A DNA stretch of 64,000 nt from Eledone cirrhosa (Eukaryota). Below, piece by piece: positions 3,091 through 48,125 of this stretch (position 1 is the stretch's first letter; the number at the start of each line of letters is the position of its first letter). Under the pieces are notes generated by a model. The model saw nothing but the letters and a program-made list of their open reading frames with translations, was not told where the DNA came from and did no database searches. The translations under genes were made by a program, and so were the position numbers. The stretch lies in the NCBI GenBank assembly GCA_964016885.1, contig OZ024741.1:157666001-157730000 (forward strand), in the 5' to 3' direction.

Positions 3091-6000
3091 TTGTTGTCTG
3101 TACACCCTCCCTACATATACACACACACACATACACTGTTGTCTGAACACTCTCCCCACACATACACTGTTGCCTGTACACTCTCCCCACACATACACTG
3201 TTGTCTGTACACTATCCCCACACATACACTGTTATCTGTACATTCTCCCCCCACATACACTGTTGCCTGTATACTATCCCCACACATACACTGTTATCTG
3301 TACATTCTCCCCACACATACACTGTTATCTGTACATTCCCCCCCCCCACATACACTGTTATCTGTACATTCTCCCCACACATACACTATTGTCTGCACAC
3401 TCTCCCCACACATACACTGTTATCTGTACATTCTCCCCCCACATACACTGTTGCCTGTACACTCTCCCCACACACACACTGTTGTCTGTACATTCTCTCC
3501 ACACATACACTGTTGTCCGTACATTCTCCCCACACATACACTGCTGCCTGTACACCCTCCCCACACATACACTGTTGTCTGTACATCCCCCCACACATAC
3601 ACTGTTGTCTGTACACTCTCCCCACACATACACTGTTGTCTGTACACACTCCCCACACACACACTGTTGTCTGTACACTCTCCCCGCACATACACTGTTG
3701 CCTGTACATTCCCCCCACACATACACTGTTGCCTGTACACTCTCCCCGCACATACACTGGTGTCTGAACACTCTCCCCACACATACACTGTTGTCTGTAC
3801 ACTCTCCCCACACATATACCTATTGTCTGTGCACTCTCCCCACACATACACTGCTGTCTGTACATTCTCTCCACACATACACTGTTGTCTGTACATTCTC
3901 CCCACACATACACTGTTGCCTGTACACCCTCCCCACACATACACTGTTGCCTGTAGATGCCCCCACACATACACTGTTGTCCGTACACTCTCCCCACACA
4001 TACACTGTTGTCTGTACACACTCCCCACACACACACTGTTGTCTGTATATTCTCCCCACACATACAATGTTGTCTGCACACTCTCCCCACACATACACTG
4101 TTGCCTGTACACTCTCCCCACACATACACTGGTGTCTGAACACTCTCTCCACACATACACTGTTGTCTGTACACTCTCCCCACACATATACCTATTGTCT
4201 GTACACTCTCCCCACACATACACTGTTGTCTTACATTCTCCCCACGCATACACTGTTACCTGTACACTCTCCCCACACATACACTGTTGCCTGGACACCC
4301 CCCCCCCATACACTGTTGCCTGTACACTCTCCCCACACATACACTGTTGCCTGTACACCCTCCCCAAACATACACTGTTGTCTGTATATCCTGCCCACAC
4401 AGACACTGTTGTCTGTACACTCCCCCCACACATTCACTGTTGTCTGTATATTCTCCCCACACATACACTGTTGTCTGTACACTCCCCCCACACATACACT
4501 GTTGTCTGTACATTCTCCCCACACATACACTGTTATCTGTACATCCCCCCCCCCACATACACTGTTATCTGTACATTCTCCCCACACATACACTGTTGTC
4601 TGCACACTCTCCCCACACATACACTGTTGTCTGTACATTCTCCCCACACATACACTGTTTCCTGGCCATCCCCCCCCCACACAAACACTGTTGTCTGTAC
4701 ACTCTCCCCACACATACACTGCTGCCTGTACACTCTCCCCACACATACACTGGTGTCTGAACACTCTCCCCACACATACACTGTTGTCTGTACACTCTCC
4801 CCACACATATACCTATTGTCTGTACACTCTCCCCACACATACACTGTTGTCTTACATTCTCCCCACGCATACACTGTTACCTGTACGCTCTCCCCACACA
4901 TACACTGTTGCCTGGACATCCCCCCCCCATACACTGTTGCCTGTACACTCTCCCCACACATACACTGTTGCCTGTACACCCTCCCCAAACATACACTGTT
5001 GTCTGTATATTCTCCCCACACAGACACTGTTGTCTGTACACTCCCCCCCACACATACACTGTTGTCTGTACATTCTCCCCACACATACACTGTTGTCTGT
5101 ACACTCCCCCCACACATAGACTGTTGTCTGTACACTCTCCCCACACATACACTGTTTCCTGGCCATCCCCCCCCACACATACACTGTTGTCTGTACACTC
5201 TCCCCACACATACACTGCTGCCTGTACACTCTCCCCACACATACACTGTTGCCTGTACACCCTCCCCAAACATACACTGTTGTCTGTATATTCTCCCCAC
5301 ACAGACACTGTTGTCTGTACACTCACCCCACACATACACTGTTGCCTGTACATTCTCCCCACACATACACTGTTGTCTGTACACTCCCCCCACACATACA
5401 CTGTTGTCTGTACACTCTCCCCACACATACACTGTTTCCTGGCCACCCCCCACACATACACTGTTGTCTGTACACTCCCCCCACACATTCACTGTTACCT
5501 GTACACTCTCCCCACACATACACTGTTTCCTGGCCATCCCCCCCCACACATACACTGTTACCTGTACACTCTCCCCACACATACACTATGTCTGTACACT
5601 CTCCCCACACATACACTATGTCTGTACTCTCTCCCCACACATATACTATTGTCTGTACATTCTCCCCACGCATACAGTGTTGTCTGTACACTCCGCCCAC
5701 ACATACACTGTTGCCTGTACACTCTCCCCACACATACACTGCTGCCTGTACACTCTCCCCGCGCATACACTGTTGTCTGCACATTCTACCACACATACAC
5801 TGTTGCCTGTACACTCTCCCCACACATACACTGTTATCTGTACATTCTCCCCCCACATACACTGTTGCCCGTATACTATCCCCACACATACACTGTTATC
5901 TGTACATTCTCCCCATGCATACACTGTTATCTGTACATCCCCCCCCACATACACTGTTGCCTGTACACTCTCCCCACACACACACTGTTGTCTGTACATT

Positions 6001-9000
6001 CTCTCCACACATACACTGTTGTCCGTACATTCTCCCCACACATACACTGTTGCCTGTACACCCTCCCCACACACACACTGTTGTCTGTACATTCCCCCCA
6101 CACATACACTGTTGTCTGTACACTCTCCCCACACATACACTGTTGTCTGTACATTCCCCCCCACATACACTGTTATCTGTACATTCTCCCCACACATACA
6201 CTGTTGTCTGCACACTCTCCCCACACATACACTGTTATCTGTACATTCTCCCCCCACATACACTGTTGCCTGTACACTCTCCCCACACACACACTGTTGT
6301 CTGTACATTGTCTCCACACATACGCTGTTGTCCGTACATTCTCCCCACACATACACTGTTGCCTGTACACCCCCCCCCCCACACATACACTGTTGTCTGT
6401 ACATTCCCCCCACATATACACTGTTGTCTGTACACTCTCCCCACACATACACTGTTGTCTGTACACACTCCCCACACACACACTGTTGTCTGTACACTCC
6501 CCCCGCACATACACTGTTGCCTGTACATTCCCCCCACACATACACTGTTGTCTGTATATTCTCCCCACACATACACTGTTGCCTGTACACCCTCCCCACA
6601 CACACACTGTTGTCTGTACATTCTCTCCACACATAGGCTGTTGTCCGTACATTCTCCCCACACATACACTGTTGCCTGTACACCCTCCCCACACAGACAC
6701 TGTTGTCTGTACATTCCCCCCACACATACACTGTTGCCTGTACACTCTCCCCGCACATACACTGGTGTCTGAACACTCTCCCCACACATACACTGTTGTC
6801 TGTACACTCTCCCCACACATATACCTATTGTCTGTACACTCTCCCTACACATACACTGCTGTCTGTACATTCTCTCCACACATACACTGTTGTCTGTACA
6901 TTCTCCCCACACATACACTGTTGTCTGTACACTCTCCCCACACATATACCTATTGTCTGTACACTCTCCCCACACATACACTGTTGTCTTACATTCTCCC
7001 CACGCATACACTGTTACCTGTACGCTCTCCCCACACATACACTGTTGGCTGGACATTCCCCCCCCCATACACTGTTGCCTGTACACTCTCCCCACACATA
7101 CACTGTTGCCTGTACACCCTCCCCAAACATACACTGTTGTCTGTATATTCTCCCCACACAGACACTGTTGTCTGTACACTCCCCCCCACACATACACTGT
7201 TGTCTGTACATTCTCGCCACACATACACTGTTGTCTGTACACTCCCCCCACACATAGACTGTTGTCTGTACACTCTCCCCACACATACACTGTTTCCTGG
7301 CCATCCCCCCCCACACATACACTGTTGTCTGTACACTCTCCCCACACATACACTGCTGCCTGTACACTCTCCCCACACATACACTGTTGCCTGTACACCC
7401 TCCCCATACATACACTGTTGTCTGTATATTCTCACCAGACAGACACTGTTGTCTGTACACTCACCCCACACATACACTGTTGTCTGTACATTCTCCCCAC
7501 ACATACACTGTTGTCTGTACACTCCCCCCACACATACACTGTTGTCTGTACACTCTCCCCACACATACACTGTTTCCTGGCCACCCCCCACACATACACT
7601 GTTGTCTGTACACTCTCCCCACACATACACTGTTTCCTGGCCATCCCCCCCACACATACACTGTTATCTGTACACTCTCCCCACACATACACTATGTCTG
7701 TACACTCTCCCCACACATACACTATGTCTGTACTCTCTCCCCACACATATACTATTGTCTGTACATTCTCCCCACGCATACAGTGTTGTCTGTACACTCC
7801 GCCCACACATACACTGTTGTCTGTACACTCTCCCCACACATACACTGCTGCCTGTACACTCTCCCCACACATACACTGTTGCCTGTACACCCTCCCCAAA
7901 CATACACTGTTGTCTGTATATTCTCCCCACACAGACACTGTTGTCTGTACACTCCCCCCACACATACACTGTTGTCTGTACACTCCCCCCACACATACAC
8001 TGTTTCCTGGCCACCCCCCCCCACACATACACTGTTGTCTGTACACTCTCCCCACACATACACTGCTGCCTGTACACTCTCCTCACACATACACTGTTGT
8101 CTGTACCCCCCCCCACGCACATACACTGTTGTCTGTACATTCTCCCCACACATACACTGTTGTCTGTACACTCCTCCCACACATACACTGTTGCCTGTAC
8201 ATATTCCTTACACACACACTGGTGCCTGTACACTCTCCCCACACATACACTGGTATCTGTACACTCTCCCCACACATACACTGTTGTCTGTACACTCTCC
8301 CCAGACATACACTGTTATCTGTACACTCTCCCCACACATACACTATGTCTGTACACTCTCCCCACACATATACTATTGTCTGTACATTCTCCCCACGCAT
8401 ACAGTGTTGTCTGTACACTCCGCCCACACATACACTGTTGTCTGTACACTCTCCCCACACATACACTGCTGCCTGTACACTCTCCCCGCGCATACACTGT
8501 TGTCTGTACATTCTACCACACATACACTGTTGTCTGTACACTCCCCCATGCATACACTTTTGTCTGTACACTCTCTCCACACATACACTGTTCTCTGTGC
8601 ACTCTCCCCACACACATACACTGGTGTCTGAACACTCCCCCCCCCCCCCACACATACACTGTTGCCTGTACATTCTCCCCACATATACACTGTTGTCTGC
8701 ACATTCCCCTCACACAAAAACCGTTGTCTGCACACTCCCCTCACACAAACACTGTTATCTGTATATTTTCCCCACACATACACTGTTCTCTGTACATTCC
8801 CTCCCCACACATACACTGTTGCCTGTACACCCCCCCCCGCACATACACTGTTGCCTGTACATCCCCCCACACACACACTGTTGTCTGTACACTTTCCCCA
8901 CACATACACTGTTTCCTGGCCATCCCCCCCCCCACACATACACTGTTGTCTGTACATTCTCCCCAAGCACATACACTGTTGTCTGTACATTCACCCCACA

Positions 9001-12000
9001 CATACACTGTTGTCTGTACGCTCCCCCCACACATACACTGTTGTCTGTACATTCCCCCCACACATACACTGTTGCCTGTACACTCTCCCCACACATACAC
9101 TGTTGTCTGTACATTCTCCCCACACATGCACTGCTGTCTGTACACTCTCCCCACACATACACTGCTGTCTGTACACTCTCCCCACACATACACTGTTGTC
9201 TGTACATTCTCCCCACACATACACTGTTGTCTGTACACTCTCCCCACACATACACTGTTGTTTGCACATTCTCCCCACACATACACTGTTGCCTGTACAT
9301 TCTCCCCACACATACACTGTTGTCTGTACACTCCCCCCACACATATACTGTTGTCTGTACATTCTCCCCACACATACACTGTTGCCTGTACACTCTCCCC
9401 ACACATACACTGTTGCCTGTACATTCTCCCCACACATACACTGTTGTTTGCACATTCACCCCACACATACACTGTTGTCTGTACATTCTCCCCACACATA
9501 CACTGTTGTCTGTACACTCTCCCCACACATACACTGTTGTCTGTACATCCTCCCCACACATACACTGTTGTTTGCACATTCTCCCCACACATACACTGTT
9601 GTCTGTACATTCTCCCCACACATACACTGTTGTCTGTACATTCTCCCCACATATACACTGGTGCCTGTACATTCTCCCCACACATACACTGTTGTCTGTA
9701 CACTCTCCCCACACATACACTGTTGTCTGTACATCCTCCCCACACATACACTGTTGTTTGCACATTCTCCCCACACATACACTGTTGTCTGTACATTCTC
9801 CCCACACATACACTGTTGTCTGTACATTCTCCCCACATATACACTGGTGCCTGTACATTCTCCCCACACATACACTGTTGTCTGTACACTCTCCCCACAC
9901 ATACACTGTTGTCTGTACATTCTCCCCACACATACACTGTTGTTTGCACATTCTCCCCACACATACACTGCTGTCTGTACACTCTCCCCACACATACACT
10001 GTTGTTTGCACATTCTCCCCACACATACACTGTTGTCTGAACACTCTCCCCACACATACACTGTTGTCTGTACACTCTCCCCACACATACACTGCTGTCT
10101 GTACACTCTCCCCACACATACACTGCTGTCTGTACACTCTCCCCACACATACACTGTTGTCTGTACATTCTCCCCACACATACACTGTTGTCTGTACACT
10201 CTCCCCACACATACACTGCTGTCTGTACATTCTCCCCACACATACACTGTTGTCTGTACACTCTCCCCACACATACACTGTTGTCTGTACACTCTCCCCA
10301 CACATACACTGCTGTCTGTACACTCTCCCCACACATACACTGCTGTCTGTACACCCTCCCCCCACATACACTGTTGTCTGTACATTCTCCCCACACATAC
10401 ACTGTTGTCTGTACACTCTCCCCACACATACACTGTTGCCTGTACATTCTCCCCACACATACACTGTTGTCTGTACATTCTCCCCACACATACACTGTTG
10501 TCTGTACATTCTCCCCACACATACACTGTTGTCTGTACATTCTCCCCACACATACACTGTTGTCTGTACACTCTCCCCACACATACACTGTTGTTTGCAC
10601 ATTCTCCCCACACATACACTGTTGTCTGTACACTCTCCCCACACATACACTGTTGTCTGTACACTCTCCCCACACTTACACTGTTGTCTGTACATTCTCC
10701 CCACACATACACTGTTGTCTGTACATTCTCCCCACACATACACTGTTGCCTGTACATTCTCCCCACACAATACACTGTTGTCTGTACATTCTCCCCATAC
10801 ATACACTGTTGTCTGTACACTCTCCCCACACATACACTGTTGTCTGTACATTCTCCCCACACATACACTGTTGTCTGTACATTCCCCCCACACATACACT
10901 GTTGTCTGTACATTCTCCCCACACATACACTGTTGTCTGTACACTCTCCCCACACATACACTGTTGTCTGTACATTCTCCCCACACATACACTGTTGTCT
11001 GTACATTCTCCCCACACACACACTGTTGTCTGTACATTCTCCCCACACATACACTGTTGTCTGTACATTCTCCCCACACATACACTGTTGTCTGTACACT
11101 CTCCCCACACATACACTGTTGTCTGTACATTCTCCCCACACATACATTGTTGTCTGTACATTCTCCCCACACATACACTGTTGTCTGTACACTCTCCCCA
11201 CACATACACTGTTGTCTGTACACTCTCCCCACACATACACTGTTGTCTGTACATTCTCCCCACACATACACTGTTGTCTGTACATTCTCCCCACACATAC
11301 ACTGTTGTCTGTACACTCTCCCCACACATACACTGTTGTCTGTACACTCTCCCCACACATACACTGTTGTCTGTACATTCTCCCCACACATACACTGTTG
11401 TCTGTACATTCTCCCCACACATACACTGTTGTCTGTACATTCTCCCCACACATACACTGTTGTCTGTACATTCTCCCCACACATACACTGTTGTCTGTAC
11501 ACTCTCCCCACACATACACTGTTGACTGTACATTCTCCCCACACATACACTGTTGTCTGTACATTCTCCCCACACATACACTGTTGTCTGTACACTCTCC
11601 CCACACATACACTGTTGTCTGCACACTCTCCCCACACATACACTGTTGTCTGTACATTCTCCCCACACATACACTGTTGTCTGTACATTCTCCCCACACA
11701 TACACTGTCATCTGTACATTCTCCCACACATACACTGTTGTCTGCACACTCTCCCCACACATACACTGTTGCCTGTACATTCTCCCCACACATACACTGT
11801 TGTCTGTACATTCCCCCCACACATGCACTGTTGTCTGTACATTCTCCCCACACATACACTGTTGTCTGTACATTCTCCCCACACATACACTGTTGTCTGT
11901 ACACTCTCCCCACACATACACTGTTGTCTGTACATTATCCCCACACATACACTGTTGTCTGTACACTCTCCCCACACATACACTGTTGTCTGTACACTCT

Positions 12001-12505
12001 CCCCACACATACACTGTTGTCTGTACATTCTCCCCACACATACACTGTTGTCTGTACATTCTCCCCACACATACACTGTTGTCTGTACACTCTCCCCACA
12101 CATACACTGTTGTCTGTACATTCTCCCCACACATACACTGTTGTCTGTACACTCTCCCCACACATACACTGTTGTCTGTACATTCTCCCCACACATACAC
12201 TGTTGTCTGTACATTCTCCCCACACATACACTGTTGTCTGTACACTCTCCCCACACATACACTGTTGTCTGTACACTCTCCCCACACATACACTGTTGTC
12301 TGTACATTCTCCCCACACATACACTGTTGTCTGTACATTCTCCCCGCACATACACTGTTGTCTGTACATTCTCCCCACACATACACTGTTGTCTGTACAC
12401 TCTCCCCACACATACACTGTTGTCTGTACATTCTCCCCACACATACACTGTTGTTTGCACACTCTCCCCACACATACATACACTGTTGTTTGTACACTCC
12501 CCCCC
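3091..12505. repeat. 31-bp minisatellite array, about 9.4 kb (about 300 units), consensus CCCCACACATACACTGTTGTCTGTACAYTCT
   Basis: Continuous tandem repetition of the 31-mer. The predicted ORFs in all six frames simply repeat one 31-aa (93-nt) translation. Confidence 0.98.
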
Positions 12506-12624
12506 ACACACACATACACCTACACACACAACTACATACATACACACACCTGCATACATACAAACACACATACCTATACAGACACACACACACCTACACA
12601 CAAACTACACACACACGCGCCTCT

Positions 12625-12948
12625 ATGGCCCCATTCACGAATAACCATGGATTTGTACCTAGAAGCTTTCCCTCCGAGGTACAAGCCTGGGCAAGGTTTA
12701 TTTATGGAAGACCAGTGGTCACCTAGGCATACCAGCCTCCCCTCTCCATGCCACCAATGTCATAGGGAAAGGCTATGGCTGATACAGCTTGGCACCAGTG
12801 ACGTCGCAACTCATTTCTACAGCTGAGTAAACTGGAGCAAAGTGAAATAAAGCGTCTTGCTCAAGAACACAATGCATCACCCAGTCCAAGAATCGAACTA
12901 CCAACCTTTCAGTTGCAAGCCCAATGCTCTAACCACTAAGCCATGCAC
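12625..12948 (-). mobile_element. CORE-type SINE (family B variant)
   Basis: Reverse complement of the tRNA head (accactaagccatgcacc, aatcgaac) and of the CORE-like cagctgagtaaactggagcaa...gtcttgctcaag. Confidence 0.7.
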
Positions 12949-12949
12949 C

Positions 12950-13190
12950 GTCACACACACCTACATACACACAAACACATGCATACACACCTATACAGAC
13001 ACAAACACACACACACACAAACACACACCTACACACACATACACACACCTACACACAGACACACCTACACACACAACCACCTGCATACATACACACATAC
13101 ACACACACATGCACACATACGCCTACACACACATATAAACCAACACACACACTTACACACACATACATTTACACACACACCCACACACCA
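12950..13190. repeat. Degenerate (CA)n tract
   Basis: Direct inspection. Confidence 0.85.
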
Positions 13191-13545: not shown

Positions 13546-13881
13546 ACAATCATGAGCCAAACACTCTAACCACTAAGCAAGATGCCTTCACACACACACA
13601 CACTTATGAATGTGTCAGTGTGTTTACGTTATGAAGACATGTAAGCACAAACGTTACTATGTACTAAAAAAACACAAACATTGTTGCTGTTATTTTATGT
13701 ATTAACATCAGTTCACGGTAAGTAATGGATATGGAATATGTGTTTATAAAACTGCATATATGTATGGTATATTAACCCATGCTAGTGTGGAAGATGGACG
13801 TTAAACGAAGAAGATGATGATGATGATGCTGAAGTTTATATTATATACATACTCTCTCTTTATATATATATATATATATAT

Positions 13882-14219
13882 GGAAAGTTATATTTAAATT
13901 GTTGGGTTACAACTAGTAAATATTTATAACTGATATAAAAGCACTCGACAAGTATTTGGAGTATATTTACAATATTAAATAAATGGAAACTATATTTATA
14001 AAACCATATTTATTTCATTATATATATTTCAGGGATATCATATTAACAATATGCTATGCCTTCCTCAGACAAAATACAATATAAACAGTTTTATAAAACT
14101 GTTTATATTGTATTTTGTCTGAGGAAGGCATAGCATATTGTTAATATGATATCCCTGAAATATATATAATGAAATAAATATGGTTTTATAAATATAGTTT
14201 CCATTTATTTAATATTGTA
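13882..14219 (-). mobile_element. Penelope-like fold-back pLTR element: perfect 252-bp palindrome (13968-14219) plus 86-nt extension, inside (TA)n
   Basis: The arms are exact reverse complements about 14093/14094 with no spacer. Each arm holds a hammerhead. (TA)n lies on both sides. Confidence 0.7.
14105..14181 (+). ncRNA. Type I hammerhead ribozyme (mirror copy on minus strand at 14006-14082)
   Basis: CUGAGGA at 14119-14125. Stem II AGG.AUA.CAUAUU-guu-AAUAUG.UAU.CCU. GAAA at 14157-14160. Palindromic stem III UAUAUA. AUA cleavage triplet ends at 14168. Stem I auauu(g)uauuuugu pairs with augaaauaaauau. Confidence 0.75.
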
Positions 14220-14556
14220 TATATATATATATATATATATACATCAAAATATATGATAAACACAAAACGTGTTTGCATTGCAACAGACAAAGTCAGCCAT
14301 TAATGAAATAAACTAATTAAAGTGAATACAATTTGTCTGTCTCGATATAAGTCAATAAAGACAAGCTTATATTGGCAACAGCCATGATTCCTGGACAGAT
14401 TTAAATTTCAAAATCCAAACCTGTTCCGTAGACGAATTTGAACCTCGAAACCTAAATCCGTTTCGCAACGGTGGTATGTGAAATGCTCGGAAATGCCCCC
14501 TTTCTTGGAGCTTCATTATTGTAAACGACAGAGTTTATTCTCAAAATATAATATAG

Positions 14557-17970: not shown

Positions 17971-19459
17971 AAATTGTCATAGCAACCACACTATACAATA
18001 CCAAATCAGAAATATGTATGTATATGTGTAGCAAATTCTCTTCGCACATGCTGACCCCTGAATGACATCTGGCTGCTATTTGTCTTTATCTCACTTGGCG
18101 TAAGTAGTCTGGAAAGGCTGGCTAGCTTGAGGTGAAGCAAGATAAGTTTTTCTTTGTCTCATTTGACTCTGGTTCCTTGGGAGAGAAGCATCGCTTTGAC
18201 CTGCTCAAGCAAGTAGCGAGATGTAGCACTTATCAAAAATAAATGTTGGCCCTATCGATAAGGGCCTGATAAAAATTCTCCCAACAACACTTCAACCACA
18301 AACAGAATCATCTGTCCCTTCATACAAACAAAGATTCTTCAGCATGACACAGAGACCTTTTTTTAACACTGTATTCATTTGTAAGTGCTACCATCAAACT
18401 TTATATTTTTTTGATTCAAAGTAATCATATTCTTTTTCCTTTTTGCTGAAGTGAAGTAAAGTTCTATATCTGACCAAAATGATTGTATTTGTCATGTTTA
18501 TCATCCTCTTCAACAACAACAACCACTAACTTCGCTTCAATTGGTGACTTCGATGTAATCAAACTATTTACAAAACTTTGCTTTATATGTGCTGATGTAT
18601 GTGTGTCTATGTGTGCATTTCTCCATGTTTGTTTATTAATAAGTGTGTTAAAGTTTTTTGTTGTATGTGTAATGTATCTACATCTGTGTGAGTATTTCCA
18701 TGTAGTGCAGCAATAGTGTATCCATATCGGTGTGCACATGGATGAAGGAGGGTACTGGATGCGGTGGGAAGAGCAGATTAAAGGAAGAGGGGTGATGCAT
18801 TTAAGTCAATGTGGGTAGATGTATTTAGAAAGAAAATAAGCTGAAGTTCCCTCTGGTGGCAGGTATCTGTGGGTCTGGTACAGGAAGTGATCCCAAGGGT
18901 GAACACATGCTGCCACTGAGCTTCAAAAATGGCATTATTTGGAGACATCACCACTATTAACACTCACTTGGTGAACTGATTTCCTTAGTTATAGATAATT
19001 TATCAGCCAAACCTAACTCAGTGATTACCACATCAAAGATGAAATATGTTACCAGCAGTAAAGTGTGAGGAACTAAGATATATGATGGTGGGAGGCTGGT
19101 GAGAAAAACTATAAATCTAGTCGAAAACCAGATACAGAGGACAAGTGAGTAATGGGTAGTTAATGAAACCACCTCTTTCATGCCAGCCAGCAAATGTAAA
19201 ACAAAATGAATTTTGAACTCATATGCAGACGGGCTTTTGAAAGAGCAACCTCGAATGCAAGTCCATTCCCTTATCAACAGCCTGTATTGCATTTGAAATA
19301 TATTACATAATAAATGTATTACCTCATAGATTGTCTGAAGACGTTGTGTTAGTAATTGCATGATAACAGCATTACATAATTAATAACGTCACAGAAATAT
19401 GTATTACAGTGAATTTCGTAATAAAATAAATTATGAAAATCTAGCCTTCATATTTTCAA

Positions 19460-23043: not shown

Positions 23044-23995
23044 TAGAAAAGATGAATATAAAAGGAAAGTGCTTTTTTTAAAAAGGAATTTATTAGGTAT
23101 TGACATGTTTCTGTAACAGACGGAATACCTATGTATCGCTGCTTGCGTAATCATATAATGTTAGCAAGTATTCGATAGCAAATGTATAATCAGTTGTCAC
23201 TTCTTCAGAGATTTTGGATAAATTGGATAAAATCAGAAAAATTGAAGTATTTATATTAGTAATAGAGGAAGAAGAGAGGGGATAGTATATGACAGATGGT
23301 AATTCAATTTACTGCTAAACAAGTATATAAAGGGTTTCTAATGAGAATACCATGAGTAAATGGTTCATTTTATCTAAATAAGAATTTTTGGGAGTGCCAA
23401 TTTTAATCTCTACTTGACCAATTGGACAGTGGACAGGGCTGGTCATTTGGTGTAGTAGTTTTAATTATAAAGTGTCAATTGGTCAAGTAGAGTTTTAATT
23501 ATAAAGTGTCCAATTGGTCAAGTAGAGATTAAAATTGGCACTCCCAAAAATTCTCATTTAGATAAAATGAACCATTTACTCATGGTATTCTCATTAGAAA
23601 CCCTTTATATACTTGTTTAGCAGTAAATTGAATTACCATCTGTCATATACTATCCCCTCTCTTCTTCCTCTATTACTAATATAAATACTTCAATTTTTCT
23701 GATTTTATCCAATTTATCCAAAATCTCTGAAGAAGTGACAACTGATTATACATTTGCTATCGAATACTTGCTAACATTATATGATTACGCAAGCAGCGAT
23801 ACATAGGTATTCCATCTGTTACAGAAACATATGTCAATACCTAATAAATTCCTTTTTAAAAAAAGCACTTTCATTTTATATTCATCTTTTCTACATTTTC
23901 TCCGGAATATAATTTATACTCGTTGAGCAAACCTACACGTACGCTGTTCATCTCTAACGTAACGATATATTATCACTACATTATTGATAACCTGA

Positions 23996-24000
<5 letters not shown>
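23044..24000 (+). mobile_element. Penelope-like fold-back element: about 386-bp inverted arms (23044-23428 / 23507-23893) plus 107-nt extension, inside (TA)n
   Basis: Arms differ by about 3 substitutions and one 2-nt indel. Hammerhead-like core CUGAAGA (23727-23733)...GUGACA/UGUUAC...GAAACAU(AU)GUC (23824-23835). Confidence 0.65.
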
Positions 24001-46500: not shown

Positions 46501-47106
46501 GTATATATAGATACACACAGTAAAAAAAGGGAAGAAAACACGGTTCAATCTAATCTGAAAGCTATTATTTATTTATGTTCATATACGGAACAAAAGCAGT
46601 ATGTGTGTGTGTACACACACACCTTTTTAAATAATCGTAGTTATGTTGTCTTATATATATAGATGTATATATGTATGTATACACATGTAAATATATATAT
46701 ATGTGTGTGTGTGTACACACCCAGATAAATGTATGTGTGTAGGAGTCACGTATCTTAAATGTGTGTTCTATGTCCTCCAATAGAAAGCGATATTATTGTC
46801 TCACGATACAAACACAATTAGGTAGGATAATTAGAGGTGAATCTTTGTTTTTAATTAACAACTATCTTCTATTATACTGTCACTGAAAAACGAAAACAAA
46901 GAATCTTTCGTTGTTTTTTTTCTCTAATTCTTTTTCCTTCTTTCATTCATTCGTAAACGATTCAAAATGAAAGTAAACGGCGGATATATAAAAGTAAATA
47001 ATGCGCCATAATCCTATTTTAAGGGTTTCATTAAGTGAAAGGGAAATATATACATACACACATATATCCAGCTACAAATGAAAATTGTAGTTAAAATAGT
47101 GTTATA

Positions 47107-47274
47107 CATGTAAAATTCCATTATAACGAATTTTTCAGTATAACGAATTATTTTCAGTCCCAGAGGTAATAAACAAACGCTCGGTTTGTTTCAGTCGATC
47201 CCGTTATAAAGAATTTTTCGTTACAACGAATTTTTCTAATACCCCGTGAATTTCATTATAACGGAATTTCATTA
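47107..47274. mobile_element. Tc1/pogo-type MITE
   Basis: Imperfect TIRs aaattccattataacgaa / ttcattataacggaattt, subterminal ttataacgaa repeats, TA flanks. Confidence 0.65.
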
Positions 47275-47285
47275 TATATATATAT

Positions 47286-47688
47286 ATATTAAAATACAAA
47301 TATTAATAAAATAGATGTTCTTTTGATCAATTACATTTTATTATACATATTTCGGATGTACAACAGTACGTCCTCATCAGACAAAATATAATGATACATG
47401 ACATACCCTGAGATGTTAAATGGTTAAGATTTACATTTACCTTGATTAAATCTTAACCATTTAACATCTCAGGGTATGTCATGTATCATTATATTTTGTC
47501 TGATGAGGACGTACTGTTGTACATCCGAAATATGTATAATAAAATGTAATTGATCAAAAGAACATCTATTTTGTTAATATTTGTATTTTAATATTAATAA
47601 CTCTGGAAAATTATTTATCGTAGAGTGCTTCCAATCTACTGTAAAACTAATTCTTTGATATATTCATTGAATCTTGTTTAACTCTTTA
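47286..47688 (+). mobile_element. Penelope-like fold-back element: 148-bp arms (47286-47433 / 47447-47594), 13-nt spacer, 94-nt extension, inside (TA)n
   Basis: The arms are reverse complements with one mismatch, and each contains a complete hammerhead. Confidence 0.72.
47485..47554 (+). ncRNA. Type I hammerhead ribozyme (mirror copy on minus strand at 47326-47395)
   Basis: Stem I auuauauuuugu/auaaaauguaau (12 bp). CUGAUGA at 47500-47506. Stem II GGA.GUAC-uguu-GUAC.UCC. GAAA at 47527-47530. Stem III UAUGUA. AUA triplet ends at 47538. Confidence 0.82.
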
Positions 47689-48125
47689 ATATATATATAA
47701 TTTTCGTTGACCCTTGCGGTATGCGGCCGACCTGTCGCACTTGGTGAATTGATGGTTGTTGTTTTTTTACTCTAGCTTTGATCAAATTATTTTGTGCATT
47801 TATTTGTGAGGTTCCTAGCAATAATTGCATTATATATTATGTTTATACTTTCATTCTGTAAGAATTATAAACAATTTGTAATGTTATTGATACAACTGTA
47901 AATAAAAGCTTGTATGTATGTATGTATGTATTTTTATAAAATGAGAGAGAGAAGAGACAAAGAATTAGATAGTTAAATGTACTGGAACATTTTTATAATT
48001 TTACTGGTTTCAGTCATTAGACTGCTGCCATGGTGTGGCACCGCCTTGAATTTAGTAATAATGTCGAACCCAGTACTTATGTTATAGACTTTTGGCAAGT
48101 TATAGGACATAAAAACGAACACAGA

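Follow-up and report, generated by a model that had tools for sequence, protein, structure and literature searches.

Paired hammerhead motifs in a palindrome of Eledone cirrhosa are very probably inverted fragments of a Hydra-clade Penelope-like element

A short stretch of the Eledone cirrhosa genome carries two hammerhead motifs on opposite strands, and had been predicted to be a textbook hammerhead pair, structurally conserved with a second site at 14.1 kb of the same window (the 64,000 nucleotides analysed here). We wondered what kind of sequence this is, whether its two motifs act together, and what its many relatives in the genome say about its origin. The answer we consider highly probable is that 47286..47594 is an inverted pair of fragments of a Penelope-like element (PLE) of the Hydra clade, inserted in (TA)n, whose hammerhead likely cut the RNA of the parent element, probably as a dimer or with help from a protein, and is predicted to have no activity at this locus. 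The hammerhead as such is nothing unusual, since earlier publications report such motifs from PLEs, along with truncated copies in inverted orientation and a Hydra family of octopus. The main interest is the mechanism that the copies record, through a rule by which one of each of two end sites is used, a tail whose side does not depend on arm length, and a twin hairpin found across the clade behind both starts.

The feature is real: the sequence confirms a palindrome with one type I hammerhead in each arm (Table 1). The arms are 99% identical and match the element for 53 nt and 62 nt, respectively, upstream of the hammerhead cores, which lie 119 nt apart. The extent originally given holds for the palindrome and falls short for the insertion, since a one-sided tail reaches further right; this tail is pLTR-to-ORF sequence of a full-length copy (L038). 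A sister insertion at the 14.1-kb site is built in the same way.

Table 1 Coordinates of the features in the window.
Feature	Position	Strand	Details
Near-perfect palindrome	47286..47594		309 bp; two 148-bp arms, 13-nt spacer, one mismatched pair
Left arm, 5'-truncated 3' end (pLTR) of a family A element	47286..47433	-	stops at 3'-end site 1 in (TA)n, without tail
Palindrome centre	47434..47446		47434-47437, four junction bases unmatched to the reference; then nine extra right-arm element bases
Right arm, second 5'-truncated copy	47447..47594	+	up to 3'-end site 1
Type I hammerhead	47488..47550	+	stem I up to 12 bp, palindromic stem III, predicted cut after 47538
Plus-strand stem I	47488-47499 with 47539-47550	+
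Plus-strand core and stem II	47500-47506; 47507-47526; 47527-47530		CTGATGA; stem II; GAAA; H17 = A47538
Type I hammerhead, mirror copy	47330..47392	-	core 47380, H17 47342, predicted cut after 47342
One-sided tail to 3'-end site 2	47595..47699	+	105 nt, then (TA)n
Bulged hairpin, copy 1	47600..47629	+	ACUC-stem-loop-UA bulge-GAGU-GCU, 6 nt 3' of end site 1
(TA)n target microsatellite, left flank	47273..47290	none
Sister family B palindromic insertion	13962..14225		comparison site
Family B one-sided tail, left side	13880..13961	-	includes hairpin copy 1
Family B hammerhead	14111-14176	+	core 14119
Family B hammerhead	14011-14076	-	core 14068
Family G palindrome with one-sided tail	23047-24000		324-bp arms, 23105-23428 and 23507-23830

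Beside the insertion, on its left, lies a high-copy repeat with internal direct and inverted repeats (window 47095-47270). The window also holds a 9.4-kb minisatellite (3126-12514; 31-bp unit, about 302 copies, strong GC skew) and two tRNA-like matches just above the Rfam cut-off (1871-1928 and 12881-12950), which are probably the heads of a tRNA-derived (octopus) SINE.

Core residues are given in hammerhead position numbering. The window motif contains C3 U4 G5 A6 N7 G8 A9, G12 A13 A14, the A15.1-U16.1 pair and H17, and the position of H17 agrees with the cut site predicted earlier from the same letters. The motif shared with the 14.1-kb site, the stem II difference (GGA/UCC versus AGG/CCU) and two G-U swaps in stem I are all as the original prediction described them, while its 3-bp stem II proved too short: three pairs are followed by a conserved C.A mismatch and then by at least 4 bp. 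A scan of both strands of the 64 kb for the type I motif returned four motifs, all inside the two palindromes, and exact patterns matched the 3.0-Gb genome 6,056 times for the family of the 47-kb site (family A), 6,190 times for that of the 14-kb site (family B) and 9,938 times for their relative, family E; reversed patterns, the control, gave 0 matches genome-wide. The motifs are therefore not a product of chance.

They are not textbook hammerheads, either. Hammerhead_1 (RF00163), the model named for checking the prediction, and the other Rfam hammerhead models matched neither the window nor two sub-stretches of it, at the gathering threshold (34 bits for RF00163) or at E <= 10, and stem III of the isolated arm is predicted to form with a probability of 0.001. 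RF00163 does match elsewhere in the same genome, with 18 matches among 74 scored candidates; L273-L277 represent an Rfam-positive type I family, distinct from A and B, that ends in (TA)n. At least three further small hammerhead families with other stems, probably from other PLE clades, were seen at L210, L218, L242, L247 and L220. The Rfam scans of the window yielded sub-cut-off matches of the miRNA type, which are caused by the palindrome, and a miRNA precursor was rejected. Our covariance model R1 found the four known motifs in the window, a recovery that is circular, and one 18-bit match at 19327-19411.

Could the two motifs work as a unit, as the word pair implies? They lie on opposite strands, so one transcript has only one motif in sense. 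In RNA read through 47286..47594 the two arms would pair over 148 bp and leave neither hammerhead able to form: for the plus strand a single hairpin of -243.7 kcal/mol is predicted, and every hammerhead helix has a predicted probability of 0 in read-through RNA of either strand. The pair is thus not supported as a functional unit, and we rejected a tandem-dimer function of the two arms. In the isolated arm stems I and II are predicted to form (0.5-0.98), and a transcript that starts inside the palindrome would also form them with probabilities of 0.5-0.9. A 63-nt family A fragment is predicted to adopt a double hammerhead (-30.4 versus 2 x -13.8 kcal/mol), the minimum-energy form by only about 2.8 kcal/mol, a fragile preference; for shorter fragments the predicted probability of an intermolecular stem III is 0.97 in E, 0.30 in B2, 0.07 in F and at most 0.01 in A and B, and the dimer-folding control gave a mixed result. 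On these predictions the local hammerhead pair is probably inactive.

A role of this copy in its host, as an active ribozyme or as a source of dsRNA for editing or small RNAs, seems to us very improbable. Its intact core, the near-identity of its arms and the predicted folding of stems I and II in an internally started transcript would suit such a role, yet the copy is one of thousands of similar ones, the identity of its arms fits a recent insertion, and the list of open reading frames identifies no host exon nearby.

The parent elements encode a reverse transcriptase and an endonuclease. L038 is a full family A element, in which an inverted copy is followed by a pLTR, a decayed RT ORF and a second pLTR, and in 6 of 12 further stretches (L242, L244, L247, L248, L251 and L252) the endonuclease end is joined to the exact hammerhead of the window or to a one-base variant of it. 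No intact family A ORF was found among 150 scored matches, the longest open frame of which has 440 aa. Family B, with a unit of 4,011 bp that includes a 1.6-kb 3' UTR, has many intact 738-aa ORFs with YRDD. The model of the family B protein (pLDDT 89.5) finds its best fold matches in telomerase RT (TERT; E 3e-10). Pfam returned no match for the full family B ORF and nothing useful for ORF fragments; a PDB sequence search gave no match with the single protein and a weak retron RT match (E 0.013) with a profile. The C-terminus is of the GIY-YIG type: the motif IVY...YVG/YIG is accompanied in sequence by R, E and N, residues Y617, Y630, G632 and R641 are invariant in 60 aligned sequences, and Pfam GIY-YIG (PF01541) matches 3 of the 60 members weakly.

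Several traits point to the Hydra clade for these elements. The Hydra motifs DKT (for DKG), a CxCx5C linker, CxxC and CxH are found in the family B ORF and in family A fragments; at the RWK motif A and B have RWR, and RWK occurs in family G and in 44 of 120 homologues. Traits of Penelope EN+ elements are also seen, namely pLTRs, partial tandems, an inverted 5'-truncated copy, a one-sided tail and a hammerhead in the pLTR, and the insertions sit in (TA)n, as for the Hydra clade. Protein identity is 47-60% by segment (about 50%) between A and B and about 53% between E and B over the RT region, and the only named homologues are from the octopod Argonauta hians. By eye, the Hydra proteins in the accessible published text match block by block.

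This origin leaves very little room for a MITE or other TIR DNA transposon, a tandem retrozyme or an assembly artefact, a set of readings that we regard as exceedingly unlikely. A long inverted repeat with no ORF might suggest them, and type I hammerheads are also found in animal retrozymes (PMC7229834, accessible text), but the same sequence forms the 3' end of RT-EN elements, arm lengths range from tens of bases to 3 kb, the locus has no tandem unit of 150-450 bp, and the one-sided tail recurs across contigs. The linked RT-EN ORFs already largely refute this set of readings; a non-LTR retrozyme was rejected on the lack of short head-to-tail tandem repeats at the locus and on the ORF of the parents.

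Intact Hydra-like elements also form head-to-tail arrays, with periods of 4,011 bp in family B and 3,531 bp in family D (L249, L250; G000:C1:437200498-437211354), and such arrays would supply tandem hammerheads and tail-containing templates. In L249 the main truncation hot spot, about 85-140 nt upstream of the family B core, coincides with an extended run of pyrimidines that closes with CTAG and looks like a 3' splice site, such as the one in the Penelope pLTR intron. Members of different Hydra-like families have inserted into one another's (TA)n tails, so that two or three distinct hammerheads lie within 1 kb (L047, L030, L007, L018), and Neptune- or Poseidon-like ORFs were seen at L036, L241 and L245.

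The original prediction rightly took the fold to have been selected in the parents, although the two copies it compared are weak evidence for this; covariation across families A, B, E and F provides the support. We aligned 15 variants picked to represent these four sub-lineages, all from a search that demanded a near-intact core. In 98.4% of cells the positions pair, and 6 of 17 pairs have changed on both sides (5 of 6 in stem II and 1 of 3 in stem III; stem I shows one-sided changes alone, in 3 of 8). The covariation score was matched by 0 of 500 shuffles, a figure that, for related sequences with few independent events, is not a probability, and slid controls pair in 33-64%. A self-complementary hexamer in stem III (UAUAUA, UAUGUA or UGCGCA) is present in 208 of 213 copies (252 loci), and the fourth stem II position is unpaired in all 22 variants found at least twice. 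Selection on the hammerhead fold in the parent elements is thus supported genome-wide at the level of sequence.

Selection on a fold does not specify what the fold does, and a hammerhead-like structure kept for its shape or for binding protein, with cleavage weak or dispensable in the parents, is an alternative we hold to be rather unlikely. Among the 15 aligned variants the catalytic positions show no change and N7 alone varies (U, G, A or C), an argument that is partly circular because the search required a near-intact core, and the self-complementarity of stem III has been kept through a G-C switch. The alternative draws on the spread of families with damaged cores. In family C nearly all of the 29 copies listed (L047:2100-2200, L216-L240) have the core CAGAAGA, with U4 changed to A, and many copies are young and near-identical; family G lacks the CUGAnGA half and stem II and keeps stem I, GAAAC, the palindromic stem III and UC, a half hammerhead, and is likewise young (40 scored copies 98-100% identical; ORF with RWK). 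In the commonest family B variant, too, the pair with which stem II begins, at its base, is an A.C mismatch (58 versus 25 copies for the two main forms, n=83, in a locus sample enriched in ORF-bearing copies). In the accessible text on other PLEs, minimal hammerheads cleave poorly (Cervera and De la Pena 2014, PMC4209133), and that of PAc of Anolis (Frangieh et al. 2024, PMC11167929) depended on protein for cleavage and was dispensable for insertion: with the hammerhead mutated, PAc still inserts normally in vitro, and none of the reads has its end at the cut site. Since families C and G are young and abundant despite their altered or half cores, cleavage is not needed for spread in these families. 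Cleavage of the parent RNA is likely in our reading, and may not be required for spread.

What, then, produced a palindrome with a tail at one end? Copies stop at two sites about 90-105 nt apart, the two sites accounting for 50 and 43 of 97 ends in family A, 51 and 48 of 109 in B, 25 and 21 of 49 in E, 16 and 18 of 42 in C, and 3 and 11 of 15 in G. In contigs of related copies the match to the window gives way to (TA)n at two points, after 47594 and after 47699, although these come from one sample, possibly the assembly's own source. Neighbouring family B matches within 6 kb face outward in 39 of 41 cases and inward in none, among the first 100 listed. Exactly one tail is present in 37 of 40 B pairs (the 39 outward-facing neighbours and the window insertion) and in 19 of 22 A pairs, which were hand-picked from earlier matches and are not random; 56 of 62 inverted insertions therefore use one of each of the two sites (p 1.5e-11 against independent choice). 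In both families the arms of one insertion resemble each other more than other copies do, with 0.2-0.6 versus 3.0 differences per 119 nt in B and 3.8-5.6 versus 13.2 per 135 nt in A.

One route to such an arrangement has been proposed for rotifer Penelope: the same element makes its palindrome by self-priming, when one cDNA folds back and copies itself. The accessible text of PMC3846280 describes one-sided tails of Penelope elements and argues for self-priming. At our locus the arms are nearly symmetric about the cores, and this symmetric locus could also have arisen by fold-back; arms of one insertion share variants, 21 of the 80 arms in family B end 70-100 nt upstream of the core, and several short palindromes are centred on self-complementary words. 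Fold-back, however, cannot put the tail on the shorter arm, yet of 23 asymmetric B insertions 12 have it there and 11 have it on the longer arm (a further 12 are symmetric and 5 were excluded), and for 35 of 37 one-tail pairs the sum of the two arm lengths agrees with the core-to-core distance to within 40 nt. We therefore judge fold-back as the general explanation to be an unlikely one. Because a tail on the shorter arm is hard to obtain from one cDNA, we infer two.

A candidate for what positions two cDNA starts lies next to the end sites. Just 3' of site 1 the RNA would form a bulged hairpin, a second copy of which follows site 2 in full-length elements. Its form is NCUC-stem-loop-stem-UN-GAGY (RCUC..UN-GAGY), and copies end at a median of 0-7 nt 5' of the hairpins in all five families (A, B, C, E and G), a gap blurred by the overlap of TA with the target. 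With a 2-nt bulge, 8 of 10 octopus copies form two or more inner pairs, and with other bulge sizes at most 1 of 10 does so; the two misses are the second E hairpin, mis-anchored by the pattern, and the decayed copy in L038.

Metagenome relatives with 32-38% protein identity provided an out-of-sample test. From 77 loci, 52 were taken (match near the ORF start, leader present), 51 of them with at least 100 nt of leader. The hairpin was found in 33 of these 51 leaders, in 10 of them twice, as against 0 of 51 ORF stretches, 6 of 51 reverse strands and about 1.5 expected from shuffles; counted by sequence cluster, it occurs in 25 of 36. All 43 leader matches read GCUC...UN-GAGC, followed in 38 by ACU, which the pattern does not require, and 76 of 80 copies have U-A or C-G as their first inner pair. 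A relaxed pattern finds the hairpin as a tandem pair, spaced by 55-83 nt, in 31 of the 77 loci, and a hammerhead core lies a median of 58 nt upstream of 29 of 33 tandem pairs. In the published consensus sequences accessible to us we could place the hairpin by eye twice in the leader of Hydra-1_Ajap and once each in the tails of Hydra-2_Ajap and Hydra-2_Amil; in Hydra-1_Obim it could not be placed clearly. Rfam contains no family that matches the hairpin, a twin hairpin goes unmentioned in the main texts of PMC8557442 and PMC11167929, and we found no published description in listings of the literature outside subscription journals and Repbase reports.

The hairpin likely positions the two starts of reverse transcription, judging from where it lies; it may alternatively serve recognition at the DNA level, or translation. 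We can picture the following sequence of events. A protein of the element, probably a dimer, would bind two hairpins on an RNA left uncut by the ribozyme and would nick both strands of (TA)n. One cDNA would begin at each end site, one per nicked strand; both would terminate prematurely and become joined 3' end to 3' end, in many cases through short self-complementary words, and the joined cDNAs would form a palindrome with a tail at one end. On this basis we propose, with belief and doubt in about equal measure, that Hydra-clade PLEs carry a three-part RNA module of a hammerhead and two bulged hairpins (GCUC-stem-loop-UN-GAGC-ACU in most relatives), the hairpins being landing sites for an RT-endonuclease dimer, each of which sets one start per nicked strand.

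If true, the module accounts in one step for the pair of 3' ends, the tail on one side and the palindromes with their head-to-head arms. The choice of start site and inverted repeats with a one-sided tail are called unsettled for PLEs in the accessible text of PMC8557442 and PMC11167929, and the twin hairpin and the one-of-each rule make this open step of PLE transposition directly testable; young intact elements with 738-aa ORFs and defined leaders lead to specific in vitro predictions. At least 22,000 exact motif matches in three families also mean that the genome contains thousands of long AU-rich inverted repeats, which could feed RNA editing or small-RNA silencing.

Among known systems, RF00163 and the animal non-LTR retrozymes share the type I topology and the core with our motif, which differs in escaping that model and in having no short tandem repeat. 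The minimal hammerheads of metazoan PLEs are closer. As given in the accessible text of PMC4209133, they are alike in the full core, the long stem II, the unstable palindromic stem III, opposite-strand copies 100-700 bp apart and many covarying families per genome; in contrast, stem I has 7-12 bp here against 4-5, there is no clear bulged base here between A9 and 10.1, G10.1-C11.1 occurs in only 3 of 22 variants, and all 22 have the mismatch at the fourth position of stem II. With its full core and self-complementary stem III, the window hammerhead fits the minimal, dimer-type PLE hammerhead of that account.

PAc, a Poseidon element, resembles our families, so far as the accessible text of PMC11167929 goes, in two internal start sites 3' of the hammerhead that define the tail, in the use of both strands of an AT-rich target, which in vitro are both cut and extended, and in an RNA element 3' of the start sites, which PAc needs. 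The PAc starts lie inside the ORF, in an AC-rich stem loop, whereas here they lie about 90-105 nt apart in a non-coding leader, with a hairpin after each. The one-of-each rule implies coupling of the starts, and the lack of any strand difference in PAc start-site use in vitro counts against it.

The closest published relatives are the elements of the Hydra clade, which include Hydra-1_Obim of Octopus bimaculoides (Craig et al. 2021, PMC8557442). By the accessible account, published members are mostly below 3 kb, as a general trait, and family B here has 4.0 kb with its 1.6-kb 3' UTR; they have RWK where A and B have RWR, PLE tails are given as 30-40 bp and ours are about 90-105 nt, the hammerhead sequence printed for Hydra-1_Obim differs from that of the window, and the copies here number in the thousands, unlike those of that account. 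Alike are the C-terminal endonuclease, DKT, CxCx5C, CxxC, CxH and the (TA)n target, as well as a type I hammerhead near the 3' end with a short palindromic stem III, an inverted 5'-truncated copy and a tail at one end.
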